A stretch of DNA of 64,000 nucleotides from positions 334,986,001 to 335,050,000 of the forward strand of contig OZ024741.1 of assembly GCA_964016885.1 (NCBI GenBank). Direction: 5' to 3'. Every line of letters starts with the position of its first letter. Position 1 is the first letter of the stretch. Under the pieces are notes generated by a model. It searched no databases and was not told the origin of the DNA. It saw only the letters and a program-made list of their open reading frames with translations. A program made the position numbers and the translations under genes. This stretch comes from Eledone cirrhosa (lineage: Eukaryota). Below are positions 13,607-64,000 of this stretch, one piece after another.

Positions 13607-13789
13607 GTATTATATATATGGTTTTCAGAAGAGGAACTGAAAAGAATGATTAAATAAGGCACCTAATTAACCAATAAATAAGTTGAGAAGGTAAAAATTT
13701 ATTTCAGGTACAAAAACTTCTGCAGGAATTGAATCGTTTCATTTATTTGAAATCATATATTAGTTCTGTAGAAATTGCTTTTAATAATT

Positions 13790-15490
13790 AATCGACCAGG
13801 TCATGAAGGTCACGGAAAAAGTAATAGCGCAACTAATCAGAGAGAGAATTGACCTAGATGAAATGCAGTTCGGGTTTGTGTCAGGCAAAAGTACCACAGA
13901 CGCTCTTTTCATAGTACGACAACTACAGGAGAAGTACCTAAGTAAAGGTAAACCCCTCTACTTAGCTTTTGTCGACTTGGAGAAAGCCTTCGACAGAGTC
14001 CCCCGCTCCATTATCTGGTGGGTTCTTAGAAAACTAGGCGTTGACGAATGGCTTGTGAGGGCTATACAAGCCATGTATAAAGAAACAGTCAGCAAGGTTA
14101 GAATTAACAACGAATATAGTGAAGAGTTTAGCGTAAAAGTTGGCGTCCATCAGGGCTCTGTTCTCAGCCCCCTACTATTTATTATTGCTCTTCAGGCTAT
14201 AACAGAGGAGTTCAAGACAGGCTGCCCATGGGAACTCCTATACGCAGACGACCTGACACTCATAGCGGAATCAATGGCCGAGCTAGAGAAGAAATTCCAA
14301 ACATGGAAGCACGGCTTAGAGTCAAAAGGACTTAAAATTAACCTGGCTAAGACCAAAGTTCTAGTTTGTAGGAAAGAAAACAAGGCGGCGGTCCCTTCTG
14401 GGAAATTGTCGTGCTCGGTGTGTAGGAAAGGCGTAGGTAGAAACTCCATTTTATGTCCTAAATGCAAAGTATGGGTGCATAAAAGATGTAGTGGGATCAC
14501 AGGTAAGCTAACTAAGAACATAGATTTTACATGTGGCCGGTGTTCTGGTGCAATAAGTAGCAGCAAGTGCCCACAAAATACTAGCTCTTTCAATTGCGCA
14601 GAGGGTTCTATAGAAATAGTGGACAGCTTCCGTTACCTGGGCGATAAAATCAGCAGTGGGGGAGGGTGCTCTGAAAGTACTGTAGCTAGAGTCAGAACTG
14701 GTTGGAAAAAGTTCAGAGAGCTTATACCACTATTAGCTGCTAAAGGGTTCTCCCTAAAAATGAAAGGCAGGTTGTACGATGCCTGCATACGAACCGGCAA
14801 AGCATAAACGAACTAAGGAAAAAATTAGAGATAAGAGGGATCAGATGTTGTTTACTCGAGAGAAGGCTACGTTGGTATGGACACATGATGCGCATGAAAG
14901 TCGATAGCTGTATAACAAAGTGCAGGGCAATAAAGATAGACGGTAGCCACGGAATAGGCAGACCTAGAAAAACCTGGGATGAGCTGATAAACTCCGACCT
15001 CACACACTTACACCTCTCCAAGACAATGTCACTGGACCGAGACCTTTGGCGGTACTCAGTAACAGAGAAGACCCGCCTTACCTAAATATATAGTAAAACC
15101 TACTCCAGCCAGTAGGCATCTCTAACAAAATACACCCCGTCCCACCACCACCACCCCCACCCCATCCACACCACCCCGTTCTATGTAAAGTTATGTTGGT
15201 GCCGCGCCATCCAGGCCGAAACAAATGAGATCGTGTAGGTGTCACGACAAAAAAACACACAGTCCACGCTGTAATGTGGCCGCATAGGCAACACGGTAAA
15301 AACCTCCCAGACCCACACTGTAAATGCGGTTGGTGTTAGGAAGGGCATCCAACTGTAGAAAACCTGCCAGACAGTCCTATGCGAGCAAGACAATCATTCT
15401 TGCCTCAAGTGGGACTACCCCTGTCCAAACCCATGCAAGCGTGGAACACGGACGTTAAACGTTGATGATGATGATGATGATGATGATGTA
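13790..15490 (+). mobile_element. RTE-clade LINE, 5'-truncated
   Basis: ORF 13803-14807 has QFGF, FVDLEKAFDRV, GVHQGSVLSPLLF and LYADDL plus a Cys/His finger. The C-terminus follows after an internal deletion near 14795, and the 3' UTR ends in (GAT)n. Confidence 0.93.
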
Positions 15491-24163: not shown

Positions 24164-24541
24164 TGTATGCATATATATATGCATATATATATGTATGTAT
24201 GTATATATATGCATATATATATGTATGCACATATATATGCATATATATGCATATATATATGTATGTATATATATATATATGTATATATATATGTGTGTGT
24301 ATATATATATATATATAAATATAAGTATGTATTCGTACATACATATATGTATACAGACGTACAGTAGTATGTATATATATATATATATATACATACATGC
24401 ACACACATATATATATGTACGTATGGGTTTACCGAACATTTATAATAATGTTCGGTTTGTTTGTAAACAAACAGCCTGAATTAAGCCGTACAGTGTTTGG
24501 CAACCATCGTTGTCATTTTGTTCAACACTGACAAAGGAACG

Positions 24542-24578
24542 ATGAACTAGTTTCTAGCTTATTAGCTGTCATCAGCAC
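24542..24578 (-). ncRNA. Minimal type I hammerhead ribozyme
   Basis: Minus strand: GTG-CTGATGA-cAGCT(aata)AGCTa-GAA-ACTAGT-T-CAT, with a GUU triplet, a 3-bp stem I and a mismatched base of stem II. Confidence 0.7.
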
Positions 24579-24712
24579 CGTACAGCACTGTACGGAACAC
24601 TGTACTGGTTGCATCTCAGCGTACTCAATAGGTAATGTTATGTAAACTCCCCAAGTAGACACATATTTATTCACTTCAATACAACACACATACATGGGTA
24701 CGTTCAATGCTT

Positions 24713-27732: not shown

Positions 27733-27802
27733 TATTTTATTATGCACATTTCGAAAACAACATCATCCTGGGACAAAAATTGTGTTCTCATCAGATAAAA
27801 TA
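27733..27802 (-). ncRNA. Type I hammerhead ribozyme, intact core
   Basis: Minus strand: TATTTTAT-CTGATGA-GAACACAA...TTGTTTTC-GAA-ATGTGCAT-A-ATAAAATA. It has an 8-bp stem I, a G-C closed stem II, a near-palindromic stem III and an AUA triplet. Confidence 0.82.
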
Positions 27803-32474: not shown

Positions 32475-33162
32475 TGTAGTAAAAGTGGTAGTAGTAGATG
32501 TAGTGTACATGATGTACTAACAAATGAAAACAATAACAACAAATTGAAGTGAGTGTGGTCTGTCTCAAAATCAAAGGTTAGGCCCATACTAACTATCCTA
32601 TCTCCCCACCACTACCACCACCCATCCACCCCTACCTGCTCTGGCCTAGTTTGACTATCATAACACTATTAACTATACTTTGCCTGAGTTATATACATAT
32701 ACATCAGTACATTGTGTTCTTTCTATTTAGATTATTATATCTATTTAACATCATATTTTTTATTTGCCATTACTGAGGAGTTTAAATATTGAATCTTCAT
32801 ATATTTTTTGTGTTTATTTCTGTATATTCAGTATCTATACACAAGCATGGTTGTGTGGTAAAGAAGTTTCTTTTGCAACCACATGGTTTTAGGTTCAATT
32901 AAACGGTGGGGTAACTTAAGAAAATGTCTTCTACTATATGTGGAGGCATGTGACCTAGTGGTAAGGGTGTTGGACTTACGATCATAATGGTGTGGGCTCG
33001 ATTCCTGGGTTGCGTGTAGTGTTCTTGAGCAAAAAACTCATATATATGTATATATACAAATTTAAGGTATCAAAACATCAACTATGTCTGATATTTGTGC
33101 TTCTCAATTGAATCTACATATATCTGTTTATATACATACATATATGTATATATAATTTGAAT

Positions 33163-33223
<61 letters not shown>

Positions 33224-33224
<1 letters not shown>

Positions 33225-34320
33225 AGGGCTCTGTCCTTAGCCCCCTCCTATTTATTATTGCCCTTCTGGCTATAACAGAGGAGTTCAAGACCGCCTGCCC
33301 ATGGGAACTTCTATACACAGATGATCTAACGCTCATAGCTGAATCAATGGCTGAACTAGAGAAGAAATTCCAAACTTGGAAGCATGGCCTAGAATCAAAA
33401 GGCCTTAAAATTAACTTGTCTAAGACTAAAGTTCTAGTATGTAGGAAGGAAAATAGGGCACTGGTCCCATCTGGGAAATGGCCATGCTCAGTGTGTAGGA
33501 AAGGAGTAGGCAGAAACTCCATTTTATGTCCCAAATGCAGAGTATGGGTGCATAAAAGATGTAGTGGGATCACAGGTAAACTAACTAAGAACATAGATTT
33601 TATATCTGGCTGGTGCTCAGTTGCAATGAGTAGTAGCAAGTGCCCACAGGATACTAGCTCCTTCCATTGCCCAGATGGTTCTATAGAAATAGTGGACACC
33701 TTCTGTTACCTGGGTGACAAAATCAGCAGTGGTGGAGGGTGCTCTGAAAGTACAGTAGCTAGAGTCAGAACGGATGGAAAAAGTTCAGAGCTTATACCAC
33801 TATTGGCCACTAAAGGTTTCACCCTAAAAATGAAAGGCAGACTGTACAATGTCTGCATGCGAACAGCAATGTTACATGGCAGTGAGACATGGGCATTGTG
33901 TGCAGAGAATCTGCGCAGACTGGAGAGGAACGAAGCTTGCATGCTCCGTTGGATGCGTAATAGTAATATACGTGAACGGCAAAGCATAAATGAACTAAGT
34001 GAGAAATTAGGAATAAGAGGGATCAGATGCTGTTTACTCGAGAGAAGACTACATTCGTATGGTCACGTGATGCACATGAAAGACGACAGCTGTATAAAAA
34101 AGTGCAGGGCGATCAAAATAGATGGAAGCTACGGAGTAGGCAGACTCAGAAAAACCTGGGACGATTTGATAAATTCCGACCTTACACACTTACACCTCTC
34201 CAAGAGAATGTCACTGGACCGAGATCTTTGGCGCTACACAGTAATACAGAAGACCCGCCTTGCCTAACTACAAAGCAAAACCTACTGTCAGTAGGCACCT
34301 CCTGACCAAAAATACAGTGG
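33224..34320 (+). mobile_element. RTE-clade LINE fragment (RT C-half)
   Basis: ORF 33347-34267 is highly similar to 14250-15085. The catalytic motif reads YTDD here. Confidence 0.92.
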
Positions 34321-40049: not shown

Positions 40050-42915
40050 CGGTTTGTCTTGTTTACTCTGAGATTTCTTGGCACTTATTTACCCAGCGGT
40101 CAACTTCCATGTGCATCACATGGCCATACCAATGCAGTCTTCTCTCCCACACACTACAGTTTATCCCTCTCATGCACAGTTTCACTCTCAACTTGTCCAT
40201 GCTTGGTTGGTCATGCACATTGACATTGCACATCCATCGGAGCATGTTTGCTTCATTTCTCTCCACCTTTGCATATCCTCCGCAGTTGCTGCCCATGTCT
40301 CACTACCAGGCAGTATCAGACACCTCACACAGGCATCATACAACCTACCTTTCGTTCATAGGGAGAAACCCTTCATTGTTAACAGAGGAAGCAGCTCCCT
40401 AAATGTCTTCCATCCTGTCCTTATTCTAGATACTATGGCCTTGGAGCATCCCGCTCCCTTGTTAATCTGGTCACCTAGATATCGGAAGCTATCAACCACC
40501 TCTATAGATCCTACCTGCATTTGAAAAATGTGCCTCTCACTGACATTTCTACTATCAATTTTTCCTGAACATCTACTACATATGAAGTTTTCCCTTCCTG
40601 TTAGTTTGCTTGCTATCCCACTACACTTCTTGTGTACCCAAGATCTGCATTGTGTACATTCAATAGAGTTTATGCCAGCTTCTTTTCTACATATCGAGGA
40701 TGGCCATTTCCCTGATGGAATCAGAGTCATGTCCTCTTTCCCACTTATCAACACTTTAGTCTTAGCTAGGTTCACTCTCAGTCCTCTTGATTCCAACTAC
40801 TGTTTCCATGAATTTATTCTCTAGCTCCTCTACTGATTCTGCTATAAGAACCAGAGCGGCAGCATAGACAAGTTCCCATGGGCAGCCAGTCTTAAACTTT
40901 TCTGTTATGGCTTCGAGAACTATAGTGAATAAGAGTGAACCCTGATGAACTCCTACTTGTATCTGGAATTCCTCACTAAACTCCATTCCTACTCTCACTT
41001 TACTGACAGCTCCTCAGTACATAGCTTGCACTGTCCTCACAAGCCATTCCTGTACACATAGTTTCCTTAGGGACCACCAGATGACAGATTGGGGTACTCT
41101 ATCAAAGGCCTTCTCTAGATCAACAAAAGCTAAATATAGTGGCTTATTCTTCTCTAAGAAGCTTTCTTGTAGTTGTCTCACTAAGAAGTGGGCATCTATT
41201 GTACTTTTCCCAGGCACAAAACCAAACTGCATCTCATCTAATTTGACTCTTTCTCTAATTAGTTGTGCTAGTATTCTCTCTGTCACTAACCCGATCCATC
41301 AGTTTTATGCCCCTATAATTGCTTCTCTCCAGAGCATCCCCTTTATCTTTGTAGCAATTTACAAGAATACTGATACACCAGTCTTTGGGTATGACTCCGC
41401 CATATATAACTTGATTGACTATGTGTGCAACTAGTTTACTTCTCCTGATGCCTTCAGCATCTCAGCAACTATCTCTGATGGTTCAGTGGCCTTACCATTT
41501 TCCTTTTCCTTAATTGCTTCTTTGACCTTATAGTCGTCAACCTCAATAGCTGGTCCCTCTCTTGGGTCTGTTGGGGGTATTTCTGTCTCTCCCATTCATT
41601 CACAACATTCATCAGTCTCTCATAATGACATTTCCAGGCCTCCTTATCTGAGTATCAGTGACACTAAGTGCACCAGCATCATTTCAGACACACTTATCTC
41701 CAACAACATCCTGATTTACACTCACACACTGCCTTGCAATGCAGAATACCTCACATCTCTGATCCTCTCATCGCAGAACATTGGCAAACCTCCTACTCTC
41801 AGCTTTCCTGCATGTATACTCAGCTTTCCTGCAAGTATACCAGATGTCTAGCCTCTCTTTTAGTGGCTGAGTATTGGTCTCTACCCTGCTCCCCATTTTT
41901 ACAATCCTTCCATGCTAGTATTTTGTCTTTAATAGCTTTATTTACCGTGCTGTTCCACCATCAAGTCACCCTCTGTCTGGTTGGAGTTTTGCTCCTGCCA
42001 CAAGTCTCTTCAGTTGCATGTGGTAGGTTGTTGCATGAGAACTTCCAGTTTTCGTCTATATGATACAATTCTAATTCGTCTTCTTTCTTATTATACACAT
42101 CTTGAAGAGCTTTCCTAAATTTATATTTAAGTAAAAGGTATTTTATCTTCCAGACATTCCTTTTCCATACCTTCCTCTGTGTCTCATTCTGTCTCTTGCT
42201 TATTGAGATGTCACTAATGACTAACCTATGTTGGGGGTACATTCTTCCCCAGGGTATGCCTTAGTATTTGAAACCATTTCTCTGTCTCATTGCCTAACTA
42301 GCAAGAAGTCAATTTGTCTTATGTGCTCACCTGATTGGTAGGTTATTAGGTGATTGGCAGGTTTCATGAAGTTAGTGTTGCAAATGGTTAGTTCACTTGA
42401 ATCACAACATTCAAGAAGCCTCACACCTTCTTTGTTTCTTGAGCCATAACCATAACCACTATGTACCCCAGTGCATCCTGGAGCTGTCAATATGACCATT
42501 GAAGTCTCTTGCTAGTATGACTAAGTCTCTATCCTCTGTCACTATGGTTGTCTCTAGAAGTTGTTTGTAAAAGCAGTCCTTCTATTCTTTACCTAGGCCC
42601 ACTTGGGGAGCATAGGTAGAGATAATTGTCAGCAGTCTAGTGCCTACAACTAATCTAACTATCTCTATTGTCTTGCTAATCCACTTCTCAGCGAGTAAAA
42701 TGCCCACCTCACCTAACCCATCATCTTTTCCTATCCAGAAAAGCTTATAGCTAAGCTGTTTGCCTGCGATTAGTCTTGCTGAGGCACCTCTCCATCTCAC
42801 CTCTTGCATGCAGCACACATCCACATGTCTTCTCTCTGGCATATCCACTATCTCACCAGATCTACCGCTCAGGGTACCAACATTAAGTGTGGCAACCCTG
42901 AGATGTGTCATCTTT
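40050..42915 (-). mobile_element. Near full-length, decayed RTE LINE (AP endonuclease and RT)
   Basis: Broken ORFs: LRVATLNVGTL...CCMQEVRWRG (APE), QIDFLL, QFGFVPGKST...DLEKAFDRV, GVHQGS, finger, RRLHWYGHV. There are many frameshifts and stops. Confidence 0.92.
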
Positions 42916-43958: not shown

Positions 43959-44178
43959 CCTACCATCCATCATCATCATCATCATCCCTACCTTTATGAT
44001 AACCACCACCACCACCAACAACAAGATCATCATCACCACCACCACCACAACCGTCACCATATATATATATAAAACATTTTGTTTTAATCATTTTCTAACC
44101 CAGAAAAAAGAGAGAGAAACAAAAATGGAAAAAAAAATATTTTTCTTCCTAATAATCTTCTCTTTTTCCCTGTTTTCA

Positions 44179-44342: not shown

Positions 44343-44458
44343 ACATATATATATATACAATTAAGTTAAAAATGTACATCCACATATGTATACTGAAATA
44401 CTAGTATGCATATGAATACACACACGTATACATATGTAGATGTACCGAGTTTTTCACT

Positions 44459-44898
44459 GGTCACTTTACTGTGAGTGTCCAGCTATTCTGTATGTAAACA
44501 CACAGACAAACCGGTTTTTAGAGTCATACTGGTTTTTGAGTGAGTTACAAACGAAGTGAGTTACAAACGAAACGAAATTTAATTTCGTTTCGTTATTTGT
44601 TTTTATCGTCTCCGTTGAGCCGGTACGTACTCACACTCTATGCAAATTAGTCTGCCCACTACTAATTTTCATAGAAAAAGCATATAACGATATGTGCTTT
44701 TACGATTCTCTAGAAAGGCCGGAAGATAGGTAAATATTGCTGATGAGATGTAACAACATCGAAACTAGTTCAATATTCCTTGTCTGGCTTTCTGTAGAAT
44801 AGAGGAAAGGTGTTTCCTCAAAAACCAGTATGACTCTAAAAACCGGTTTGTCTGTGTGTTTACATACAGAATAGCTGGACACTCACAGTAAAGTGACC
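44459..44898. repeat. Fold-back element with perfect 82-bp inverted arms enclosing a hammerhead
   Basis: 44459-44540 is the exact reverse complement of 44817-44898. Confidence 0.92.
44733..44777 (+). ncRNA. Minimal type I hammerhead ribozyme, intact
   Basis: AATATTG-CTGATGA-GATGT(aaca)ACATC-GAA-ACTAGT-T-CAATATT. It has a perfect 7-bp stem I, the full CUGAUGA/GAAA core, a 5-bp stem II with G10.1-C11.1, palindromic stem III ACUAGU and a GUU triplet. Confidence 0.9.
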
Positions 44899-44973
44899 AT
44901 ATATATATGAAAACAGGGAGAAAGAGACGATTATTAGGAAGAAAAATATATTTTTTCCTTTTTTGTTTCTCTC

Positions 44974-45004
<31 letters not shown>

Positions 45005-49756: not shown

Positions 49757-49764
49757 ATATATAT

Positions 49765-50470
49765 AAACGGAAAAAATGAATCGAAATTTCATTTCTCACT
49801 CCCAGTACGGCTGTTACCTAAATATAAGTATGTACACGTACATACATATATGTATACAGACGTACAGTAGTATGTATATATATACATACATGCACCCATA
49901 TATATATATATATATGTATGGATTTACCGAGCATTTATTATAATGCTCGGTTTGTTTGTAAACAAACATCCCGAATTAGGCATACAGTGTTTAGCAACCA
50001 TCGTTGCCCTTTTGTTCAACACTGACAAAGGAACGATGTACTAGTTTCAAGCTTATTAGCTATCGTCAGCACTGTATACCTTCCTGCCAGATGATTGAAC
50101 GTCTGAAAGTATATACTTTCCTTATGCATATTAACGGCTGAGCAGCCTAATTTTCATATTTGCGTACTGGGAGTGAGAAATGAAATTTCGTTTCATTTTT
50201 TCCGTTTTTCGTTTTTGATGCACCCGGCCAATTAACTCACTCGATATGCAAATTAGGCTGCTCAGCTGTTAATATGCATAAGGAAAGTATATATTTTCAG
50301 ATGTTCAATCATCTGGCAGGTATATTCATTTTATTATAGAAATGACTTTTACAAGACTAGAACTGTTTCATTGTGAGAAATCCTCATTCTTACAAACTGT
50401 TTCATTTGTAAGAATGATGTAAGAATGATGAAATAGTTCTAGTCTTATAGAAGTCATTTCTATAATAAAA

Positions 50471-50478
<8 letters not shown>
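49765..50478. repeat. Interleaved inverted repeats with a hammerhead, next to the Penelope fragment
   Basis: IR1 49765-49809/50163-50207, IR2 50083-50158/50245-50320, IR3 50321-50371/50428-50478. Confidence 0.85.
50036..50072 (-). ncRNA. Minimal type I hammerhead ribozyme (paralog of 24542)
   Basis: Minus strand: GTG-CTGACGA-tAGCT(aata)AGCTt-GAA-ACTAGT-A-CAT, with a GUA triplet. Confidence 0.7.
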
Positions 50479-50507
<29 letters not shown>

Positions 50508-50599
50508 GTTTGAATTTGTAAAGCCAAACAATGCAGGTATGGACATAGAATAAAAATGCAAATGCAAAAGATATTGTTGACAATTAGTCTTTTACTTTA

Positions 50600-51800
50600 G
50601 ATTTATTTAAATGTCCTTAATTTTCGAGATAATATCTCTTCTTCGGAGGGTAGTAAAGCGGTTAAACCAGTGTTCTAAATAGCTTGCCAAGTCATGCTGA
50701 CAGGAAACGGTACAGAGTATCTGTTCTATCTCTAATGTCAAAGAGTTAAGGTTAGGTGGATAAAGAGTAGTCTCCCTTTAAAAGGGTTTTTTTTGTACAT
50801 GTCTGTTTAAGTGTGTGGGAGAATGCGTGAATGTGTAAGTATGTGTGTGTGTGTGTGTGTGAGTGTGAGAAGATATGTCTATACGTAAATGTGGGGGATA
50901 GATGTTCTCTCGTGTTAGAACTGGTTTTTGTATGTGTATGTGTGTGTGTGAGAGAGAATAAGTGGAGGTGTAAGCGTGTGTGTGTGTGTGTGTGTGTGCA
51001 TGCGTATGTGTGTGTGTGTGCATGTGTGTGGGAGGGTGTAAGTATGAGGCTAGATGCTCTATCAAGTTATAAATTGGGTGGTGAGTTCTAGTCTATTATT
51101 GATTGGTGGTTGTGTTTTGTCTATAATTAGAGCTTCCTTAAGATTACCGAGGTTTCTTTCCTTAGTTTCTATCCTAACTGTTATGGTTTTGTCGGTGTTT
51201 TTGCATTTCACTAGGTGTTTCTTAAATGAGGAAGCGTTAGTATTGAGGTGTTCTTTTATTCTAATGTGAAGTGGTCTGGTGGTGCTACCTATGTAGAAGT
51301 TGCTGCATTTGTCGCACTCTAGTCTGTATACGACGTAAGCCTGGTTGCATAGGTCTGTGTCGTTGATGGGGTAGTTGGCTAGCCTGCAGCAGTTGTCATG
51401 TCTGGTGGAGTGTCTTTTGGTTAGCTGTCCGCGTAGAGAAGGTCTTGAGTGGGCCAGTTGGATATCTACTCCCTCTCGTCTGATAACTCTGCGGATGGCC
51501 GTTGTTGTTTCGTCACTGAAGTGTGGGAGCTTCAGGAAGCAAGTGTTAGTGCCTCGGGTGTGGTGTCCTCTGTTCTTTCTGGCATGGTTTGTGGTGGATG
51601 TCGTGTATCCGTTCAGTTTGAGTACTTCCAGGAAATGTGTGGTGTGTGTGTCTCGGTCTCTAGCGTCGGTGCATTTGTTCCGGATACGTGTTAGTTTGTT
51701 CCTTATGTATTCGAACATAGCGCCGGCTGGGAGGGCCGATCTGAAATGTCGAACAAGTCCCTGCTGGCGGCTTTTTTATAGAACCAGGTGTGGATGTTGC
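50600..51800 (-). mobile_element. Penelope-like element, 5'-truncated (RT C-terminus, GIY-YIG endonuclease and 3' region)
   Basis: ORF 51062-51718 contains VVYRLECDKCSNFYIGSTTRPLHIRIKEH (GIY-YIG) and LKLNGY/LPHF motifs. A degenerate hammerhead-like motif lies downstream at 50615-50649 on the same strand. Confidence 0.88.
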
Positions 51801-62669: not shown

Positions 62670-62673
62670 TCAG
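62619..62673 (+). promoter_or_regulatory. Probable 3' splice acceptor of the protocadherin ATG-containing exon
   Basis: (ATT)n tract ending in TTTCAG|ATT (AG at 62672-62673), 78 nt upstream of the ATG. This implies non-coding 5' exon(s) further upstream. Confidence 0.6.
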
Positions 62674-62751: not shown

Positions 62752-64000
62752 ATGTTTGTCAAAGTGTTTGAATTGTTACTTCTGCTACACATCTGTTATG
62801 GTGTCGATTTTATCTATTATGTTAAAGAAAATAAAACACCAAATACTTATCTCGGAAATATTGGTGTTGATACTCACATGATAGATTCTGTTCCCTCAAA
62901 TGAACAATACCTTGTCAGGTATAGTCAACTGCAACAGGAGACCAACAATAATTCACAACTATTTAATGTTACAAGTGATGGAAAGCTGTACACAGCAAAG
63001 ACTCTTGATGCAGAGTCGCTATGTAAATATAATACGGAATGTTTTGAAACTGTAGATATTGCTGTACGTAAAGGAAAGTCTTTTGTTAGAATCCTTGAAA
63101 TTAAGGTAGTTATTGAGGACATCAATGACAATCAACCTGAATTTGAAGACAAAGAAATTAGTCTTCAGTTTTATGAAACTGATGGTAAAGGAACCACAAG
63201 ATCAATACCAAATGCTATTGACAGAGATGTTAGTGTGAAAAATTCCCAGATAATCTATGAGTTGATAAAAAACATGGATGATCCATTTAGCTTAGTAGTT
63301 TCCAAAAGAGTTGATGGTTCATCAAATCTTATGATTACTTTAGAAAATAAATTGGATAGGGAAATAAAAGACAAGTATTTACTTCAAGTTATTGCTAAAA
63401 ATGGTGGTTCCAGAGGAAGGAATGGAAATTTGAGTGTTCAGATATTTGTTACCGATGTCAACGATAATAGACCTGTTTTCTCACAGAAAGTCTATAATAT
63501 TACTATAAATAATGGACATCGAAAAAATGTATTAGTTCTTACTTTATCTGCAAAAGATTTCGATTCTGGTAGAAATGGTAAAATATCTTATCATTTTAGC
63601 TCAAAAACGTCCAACATAGCAAAATCTTACTTTCAGTTAAATCAACTAACTGGAGAAATTTTTCTGAACGAGAAGTTTAAACCAGAGGAGAAAAAAACAT
63701 ACAAGTTATTCATTGAAGCTCGAGATGGAGGCAGCCCTCCAATGAGTTCAATCACAACTGTCCTGGTGAATGTTATCAACCAAGAAAATAACCCACCAAA
63801 ATTAGATGTAAAGTTCTCAGAATCTACAGGAAAAACTGCCTCCATTTCTGAAGGAATGGAAGTTGGCAGCTTCATTGCATATGTAAAAGTTGTTGACAAT
63901 GATATTGGTCTGAATGGTCAGGTAACTTGTGATCTGCAACATGATAAACTGCAATTGCAGAGTCTTAGTAAGAAAAAATATAAAGTTATTGTGAAAAATC
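62752..64000 (+). CDS. Pcdh: Protocadherin (cephalopod-type), first coding exon, 3'-partial: signal peptide, EC1-EC3 and start of EC4
   Basis: Manual translation gives 416 stop-free codons: MFVKVFELLLLLHICYG (signal peptide), VDFIYYVKE...LDAESLCKYNTEC (EC1 Cys-X5-Cys typical of protocadherins)...EDINDNQPEF...AIDRD...LDRE...TDVNDNRPVF...AKDFDSGRNG...ARDGGSPP...VVDNDIGLNG. The symbol is family-level only. Confidence 0.96.
   Translation, partial: MFVKVFELLLLLHICYGVDFIYYVKENKTPNTYLGNIGVDTHMIDSVPSNEQYLVRYSQLQQETNNNSQLFNVTSDGKLYTAKTLDAESLCKYNTECFETVDIAVRKGKSFVRILEIKVVIEDINDNQPEFEDKEISLQFYETDGKGTTRSIPNAIDRDVSVKNSQIIYELIKNMDDPFSLVVSKRVDGSSNLMITLENKLDREIKDKYLLQVIAKNGGSRGRNGNLSVQIFVTDVNDNRPVFSQKVYNITINNGHRKNVLVLTLSAKDFDSGRNGKISYHFSSKTSNIAKSYFQLNQLTGEIFLNEKFKPEEKKTYKLFIEARDGGSPPMSSITTVLVNVINQENNPPKLDVKFSESTGKTASISEGMEVGSFIAYVKVVDNDIGLNGQVTCDLQHDKLQLQSLSKKKYKVIVKN

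Follow-up and report, generated by a model that had tools for sequence, protein, structure and literature searches.

The fold-back studied here lies in a 64,000-nucleotide stretch of the Eledone cirrhosa genome (hereafter the window; assembly GCA_964016885.1, contig OZ024741.1, positions 334,986,001–335,050,000) and is a truncated representative of a 466-bp non-coding repeat that carries a hammerhead motif and has at least 2,000 copies. The family to which it belongs is an animal non-LTR retrozyme, and the fold-back is probably a truncated, recent copy of that retrozyme inserted by a Penelope-like reverse transcriptase-endonuclease. Taken on its own, the locus is an ordinary, damaged repeat copy; the interest of the family lies in the question of what mobilises animal retrozymes, on which its insertion ends give direct, testable support for Penelope-driven retrozyme mobilisation.

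The 466-bp Repeat Family

The unit is repeated in tandem with a period of 466 bp and 99% identity, the copies recovered in the genome search being spaced at the same interval, and each tandem unit contains one hammerhead. A 38-base hammerhead sequence has 933 exact copies in the genome, compared with none for the reversed control. The unit has a GC content of 35.8%, and its longest ATG-initiated open reading frame spans 19 amino acids in the sense and 83 in the antisense direction; neither a reverse transcriptase (RT) or GIY-YIG reading frame nor a tRNA was found within it. As a circular monomer, it is predicted to fold at -158.9 kcal/mol, against -95.3 ± 5.8 kcal/mol for 60 shuffled sequences (z -11). 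Several features by which non-LTR retrozymes are recognized are thus present, namely a tandem repeat whose every unit holds a type I hammerhead, a non-coding sequence of less than 50% GC, and a highly self-paired predicted circle.

Three arrays, comprising 8, 30, and 70 complete units, have identical end positions in (TA)n. The 8-unit array is nearly uniform and carries private variants, and the long arrays B and D display higher-order variant periods, which indicates expansion at the DNA level after insertion. In one 34-kb array of 70 units (G000:C1:81.847-81.881 Mb, L131-L134), both arms carry variants private to the array, and a higher-order period spans 3–4 units. In contigs from runs X4, X5, and X6 (three other studies, run type unrecorded), the repeat is represented by 1–2 contigs, each a single unit with some overlap and lacking (TA)n junctions; this form was not used as evidence, since a circle and collapsed tandem DNA both produce it.

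An older related retrozyme family, approximately 70% identical to the unit, occurs in the window at 49760–50500 and 24316–24603, mostly on the minus strand. It has a CUGA(U/C)GA core and shares the ACUAGU helix III, and its copy near position 50,000 is a head-to-head inversion ending TTTAT|(TA)n. In further hammerhead families (L124:5033-5115 and L006:69-151, both on the minus strand), CAUG or CGCG replaces CUAG; these related families were retrieved with a filter requiring a palindrome, so that the palindromic helix III loop in them does not count as evidence.

The Hammerhead Motif

A type I hammerhead motif occupies positions 44733–44777 on the plus strand, with predicted cleavage after 44770. 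The first-pass annotation had called it a textbook-perfect hammerhead, and much of that description holds. The segments CUGAUGA (44740–44746), GAAA (44761–44764), and the GUU triplet (44768–44770) match the type I core CUGANGA/GAAA/NUH at every nucleotide; stem I (AATATTG/CAATATT, 44733–44739/44771–44777) is perfect over 7 bp and extends further, as had been claimed (44713–44732 with 44778–44792); and stem II is a perfect 5-bp helix with an AACA loop (44747–44760). A scan of the window returned a single perfect-core match on the plus strand, in agreement with the proposal that this is its only intact hammerhead in that orientation. On the minus strand, at 27794, the scan returned one more hammerhead-like motif of type I, whose core is perfect and whose stem II is long; similar sequence flanks other loci.

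The epithet itself does not survive inspection of helix III, which consists of a single A-U pair closed by a palindromic CUAG (44765–44768). In the predicted ensemble, this pair has a probability of 0.0 and a misfold pairing GCU with AGU dominates, the active monomer fold lying 7.6 kcal/mol above the misfold by prediction; the stable monomeric helix III of a type I hammerhead is therefore lacking. The match to the Rfam model Hammerhead_HH9 (E 1.5e-7, 36.5 bits) falls under the gathering score of 52 and has a 5-nt alignment gap at helix III, and no Rfam match was obtained over the window at the gathering threshold. By contrast, a double hammerhead, in which two copies pair through the palindrome ACUAGU, has a predicted energy of -16.0 kcal/mol versus +0.4 kcal/mol for the active monomer. 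An axolotl motif of equivalent shape is reported to cleave 6% in 1 h as a monomer, with much higher cleavage for the dimer (Cervera and de la Pena, 2020; PMC7229834). The single-pair helix III with CUAG, a form that in salamanders is efficient only as a dimer, makes the lone copy a poor ribozyme candidate, and the view that it is the best candidate for an active ribozyme is accordingly not supported for a single unit. Judging from folding predictions and the axolotl analogy, the motif is likely a real hammerhead of a dimer-dependent type, and the single hammerhead of the window copy would cut a passing transcript only weakly.

Sequence comparison supports the structure. The hammerhead core is nearly unvarying across 96 loci, and stems I and II covary in a set of 26 sequences, with 93.4% of cells paired and 7 pairs changed on both sides; slid alignments gave 35–52% pairing, and both-side changes amounted to 54 cells against 20.5 in shuffles. 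This set comprises the family and related families, and its members are related to one another and were preselected for stem I pairing, so that it leans towards structure and is read as supportive only.

Architecture of the Window Copy

The whole insertion, delimited by blastn with a natural array unit and by loose contig ends at 44357 and 44554, spans 44357–44898 and consists of two head-to-head arms between (TA)n tracts. With unit positions counted from the cleavage site, the left, inverted arm (44357–44540, minus strand) covers unit 47–230, its outer end being the 228-233 end of the family and leading into (TA)n at 44345–44356. The right arm (44554–44898, plus strand) covers unit 250–466 followed by 1–128, where it ends. 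Between them, the inversion junction (44539–44570, plus strand) contains a 16-bp tandem duplication (44539–44554/44555–44570) and a 13-nt gap. The right-arm end at unit 128 has one match genome-wide, the usual family end being 302; the window copy thus carries just the 228-233 end. Unit 129–302 was either deleted later from the right end or never present, a deletion and a stray start being indistinguishable here. A 13-bp hairpin (unit 262–290; 44566–44594, plus strand) lies just upstream of the 302 position (44606), where loose (TA)n ends fall, and is a candidate landmark for the start of reverse transcription.

The fold-back had been described as a pair of mismatch-free 82-bp arms bounded by 44459 and 44898. 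The arms (44459–44540 and 44817–44898) are indeed complementary at 82 of 82 positions, but the boundaries are incorrect and the arms are not terminal repeats: the left arm runs on past 44459 for another 102 bp, as far as 44357, and the 82 bp are the overlap of two unequal arms, unit 47–128 being contained in both. The fold-back is the usual head-to-head inversion of the family, its 82-bp length set by the unique truncation at the right end. A recent insertion had been proposed from the identity of these arms, and this proposal stands on different grounds. Because a single template gives rise to the two arms of an insertion, arm identity is expected and is no sign of youth, the chance of 82 clean bases between the arms of one insertion being 0.65. 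Recency is instead supported by closeness to other copies: the window copy is 98–99% identical to an unrelated array unit and has 6 differences from the column-commonest letter over 509 scored positions, 4 of which are subfamily variants.

The right arm is followed by (TA)5 and the 5′-truncated 3′ end of a GIY-YIG-encoding Penelope-like family, F (44899–44977, minus strand; family F piece at 44908–44977), and a second family F piece is located at approximately 44073–44177 on the plus strand. The family F 3′ ends face the retrozyme on both sides, which implies that the (TA)n tract was struck three times.

Insertion Ends and Arms Across the Family

Genome-wide, unit 302 is joined to (TA)n at 2,044 identical junctions, and unit 228–233 is joined to (TA)n in 521 forward matches, the reverse matches being multiply counted. 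The pairing of the two ends was surveyed at 90 of 100 listed 302-junctions, all on contig C1 and chosen by that junction, two of the loci being duplicates of each other; 14 ran off the fetched stretch, 1 had no block, and 75 showed both ends. At 53 of these 75, the inverted arm ends at 228–233, and at none does 302 occur at both ends. The other 22 fell outside the script's rule for the second end, and six of them show by eye a 7–14-nt stub of it. The distance between the two ends, or tail, is 69–74 nt.

Arms were compared in 107 loci (88 of the surveyed 302 loci, 17 from the genome search or arrays, and 2 array pieces). Among the 169 arms with both ends seen, 3′ ends are at 302 in 97 cases (an end for which the loci were selected), at 228 or 233 in 56, and elsewhere in 16. 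The cleavage junction is crossed by 128 of the 169, and none stops at position 1; because the arms run through the ribozyme junction, the template would have been a circle or an uncleaved multimer, which the DNA alone fits equally well. Linear cleaved templates would make cDNA 5′ ends accumulate where the ribozyme cuts; no such accumulation was present at position 1, and a weak excess of 5′ ends was seen at 460–15 (13 versus 7.1 expected, p 0.026; two wider windows, p 0.07 and 0.17). Inversion junctions overlap by 1–9 nt in 42 of 76 cases, a count made without a chance control. Arms within a locus differ at 48 of 9,043 positions (0.5%), compared with 5.0% between loci; both arms of an insertion come from one template.

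This geometry reproduces the signature of insertions by endonuclease-encoding (EN+) Penelope-like elements, in that an inverted, 5′-truncated copy lies adjacent and two 3′ ends define a tail, and the (TA)n targets match the AT-rich or microsatellite targets of those elements. The inverted 5′-truncated copy and the tail of Penelope-like elements have been described (Craig et al., 2021; PMC8557442), and the tail has been explained by two internal RT starts combined with cleavage of both strands of the target (Frangieh et al., 2024; PMC11167929).

Penelope-like Elements of the Same Genome

The two-end geometry of the retrozyme recurs among autonomous Penelope-like elements of the GIY-YIG type in this genome. 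Outside the insertion, the window contains the 3′ part of an autonomous-type element with a GIY-YIG domain (50490–51775, minus strand), which served as an in-genome control for end geometry and whose family includes young copies in other parts of the genome that are identical and contain 900-codon frames. A decayed minimal hammerhead lies near 50645 in this element, and fragmentary reverse transcriptases of LINE type, accompanied by a PHD finger, occur in the window at 13788–14807, 33161–34267, and 40330–41286. The young autonomous element (family W) has an intact 900-codon frame encoding RT and GIY-YIG and inserts head-to-head in (TA)n; six insertions were examined, and all five in which both ends were seen pair a proximal end with a distal end at a distance of 41 nt. 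In family G, whose copies are 93–96% identical to an old query, the two-end geometry with a tail of about 66 nt was found at 10 of 30 loci, one locus being an apparent exception; in family F, both ends fall at about one site in the two loci viewed. Comparison of the unit with the terminal repeats (pLTRs) of families W, F, and G, covering 60 GIY-YIG loci and one family-G end out of more than 10,000 GIY-YIG candidates in the genome, revealed no similarity; family G is a candidate partner by tail length only.

Two other routes to such ends deserve consideration. According to a model proposed in a recent preprint (Li, Clavereau and Pollet, 2026; 10.64898/2026.07.22.740005), the unit would be a detached pLTR of an autonomous Penelope-like element, with arrays formed by unequal crossing-over only. 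Its Penelope-type ends and the higher-order periods of the long arrays would be accounted for in this way, but none of the 90 loci with a 302 end leads into an ORF-bearing element (by unit mapping, without an ORF scan), the sampled pLTRs show no similarity to the unit, and the inversion is flanked on each side by multi-unit arms whose ends are exact and whose private variants are shared, which fits the insertion of a ready-made array; we therefore regard a detached pLTR as unlikely.

Mobilisation by a LINE, of which RTE/CR1-type elements occur in the window, would also bring an inversion with it. Twin priming gives inversions with microhomology, and RT-bearing LINE fragments are present within the window. 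In twin priming, however, the inverted arm starts at variable internal sites, whereas here it starts at a fixed site 69–74 nt from the first, as in the Penelope elements of the genome itself, which leaves a LINE origin with rather little credence.

Proposed Mechanism and Possible RNA Editing

Insertion by a Penelope-like enzyme is accordingly the preferred reading, and around the observed insertion geometry we infer the enzyme, the circle, cleavage, and expression of the retrozyme. Arrays would be transcribed, and neighbouring hammerheads, paired via the palindrome ACUAGU, would release monomers that ligation turns into circles. Both strands of a (TA)n tract would then be nicked in trans by a GIY-YIG Penelope protein, and two cDNAs would start inside one RNA, at unit 302 and unit 228–233, each extending in the reverse direction around the circle or, alternatively, through an uncleaved multimer. 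The fold-back would arise when the two cDNAs are joined through their 5′ ends, in many cases at short homologies. Against the Penelope model, the sampled pLTRs show no similarity to the unit, and the 69–74-nt tail exceeds the published 30–40 nt. Also against it, Penelope insertion in vitro is reported to be independent of hammerhead cleavage (PMC11167929), and eight of nine predicted frog retrozyme dimers are reported to be without cleavage (10.64898/2026.07.22.740005).

Variants that are fixed at a locus and rare elsewhere include 16 distinct A>G sites versus 5 T>C sites on the ribozyme strand (p 0.012), and unit-specific variants are symmetric (26 A>G versus 26 T>C). The A>G excess shifts with the rarity cut-off, from 7 versus 3 at the strictest through 16 versus 5 and 25 versus 7 to 28 versus 13. 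This bias fits an RNA stage and possibly reflects A-to-I editing, which in coleoids is described as directed at repeats (PMC9068888); an error bias of reverse transcriptase may also explain it. In one insertion (L087), both arms carry numerous private changes of the A>G and T>C kinds. It is conceivable, if somewhat doubtful, that the family is a currently spreading circular-RNA parasite with its replication recorded in the genomic copies, in which a Penelope protein copies one A-to-I-edited circle from two fixed starts 70 nt apart, rolls through the ribozyme junction, and inserts ready-made concatemers. If true, the genome would directly document which agent mobilises animal retrozymes and by what route, as well as ADAR edits written back into it.

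The Protocadherin Neighbourhood

The start of a protocadherin coding exon (62752–64000, plus strand; 855 codons from the ATG, continuing beyond the window) lies 18 kb downstream of the insertion and is preceded by an acceptor-like TTTCAG ending near 62673. A second protocadherin exon is present on the same strand 86 kb upstream of the window, with a donor-like site at -83,479. The two exons are 60% identical, and each has an acceptor-like site before it and a donor-like site after a similar C-terminal motif. A search for an upstream exon common to both genes returned repeats alone among the last 40 blastn matches listed. Judged by these splice-like signals, the insertion lies between a donor-like and an acceptor-like site and may therefore be intronic.

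This position bears on the suggestion in the first-pass annotation that the hammerhead could cleave the pre-mRNA if the region is a 5′-UTR intron, and on the fuller reading in which a stand-alone, efficient ribozyme cuts the protocadherin transcript and so regulates the gene. The core is intact, its strand is that of both protocadherin exons, and the insertion falls between the donor-like site at -83,479 and the acceptor-like site at ~62,673. Nevertheless, helix III is predicted to be unable to form in the monomer, and the insertion is the sole family copy in 262 kb, leaving it without a partner hammerhead in cis. Moreover, near-identical recent copies number in the thousands, and the (TA)n site occupied by this one also has two other retroelement ends. 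Such a role is thus improbable; regulation of the protocadherin gene by the hammerhead is unsupported, and co-option is not indicated. It is next to inconceivable that the fold-back is a MITE or fold-back DNA transposon that captured a hammerhead between 82-bp terminal inverted repeats, for all the perfection of its inverted arms, as the left arm is 102 bp longer, the right end is unique in the genome, the majority of copies are tandem, and the 76 inversion junctions are spread over the entire unit, which is at odds with fixed, shared terminal inverted repeats.

Comparison with Known Systems

A literature search, mostly of papers outside subscription journals, returned no publication on octopus retrozymes, their insertion-end geometry, or their editing. 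Penelope-like elements have been named strong candidates for mobilising retrozymes (PMC7229834), and the mechanism is still to be worked out according to the 2026 preprint (10.64898/2026.07.22.740005). The fixed starts, single-template arms, and read-through of the cleavage site described here make the question of the mobiliser testable with an existing in vitro assay (PMC11167929).

The family resembles the animal non-LTR retrozymes as set out by Cervera and de la Pena (2020; PMC7229834) in its non-coding tandem unit of low GC content, its single type I hammerhead per repeat, its range from dimers to long multimers, its self-paired predicted circle, and the co-occurrence of Penelope-like elements. 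It differs in unit size (466 nt, compared with 150–450 nt) and in that its insertion ends have been mapped and are Penelope-like, its circles being predicted only; the words "cephalopod" and "inverted" do not occur in the main text of that paper. The one-pair helix III with a palindromic tetraloop as its cap and the extended stem I with a bulge recall salamander satellite-2 and the axolotl HHR_Amex1 (PMC7229834), whereas the invertebrate motifs reported there have a more stable helix III and cleave well alone; the Eledone cirrhosa family thus has the weak helix of the amphibian type.

With the EN+ Penelope-like elements described by Craig et al. (2021; PMC8557442) and Frangieh et al. (2024; PMC11167929), the retrozyme shares partial tandems, the adjacent inverted 5′-truncated copy, the two 3′ ends defining a tail, and AT-rich or (TA)n targets. 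Unlike them, it has no RT/GIY-YIG reading frame, its tail measures 69–74 nt rather than 30–40 nt, its stems I and II are canonical rather than minimal, and it has no homology to the sampled pLTRs. Li, Clavereau and Pollet (2026; 10.64898/2026.07.22.740005) likewise treat retrozymes as non-autonomous dependants of Penelope-like elements. Their proposal is based on co-occurrence and pLTR similarity in vertebrates, with arrays arising by unequal crossing-over, whereas ours is based on insertion-end geometry, and the arrays of this family appear to have been inserted ready-made and sometimes expanded afterwards.
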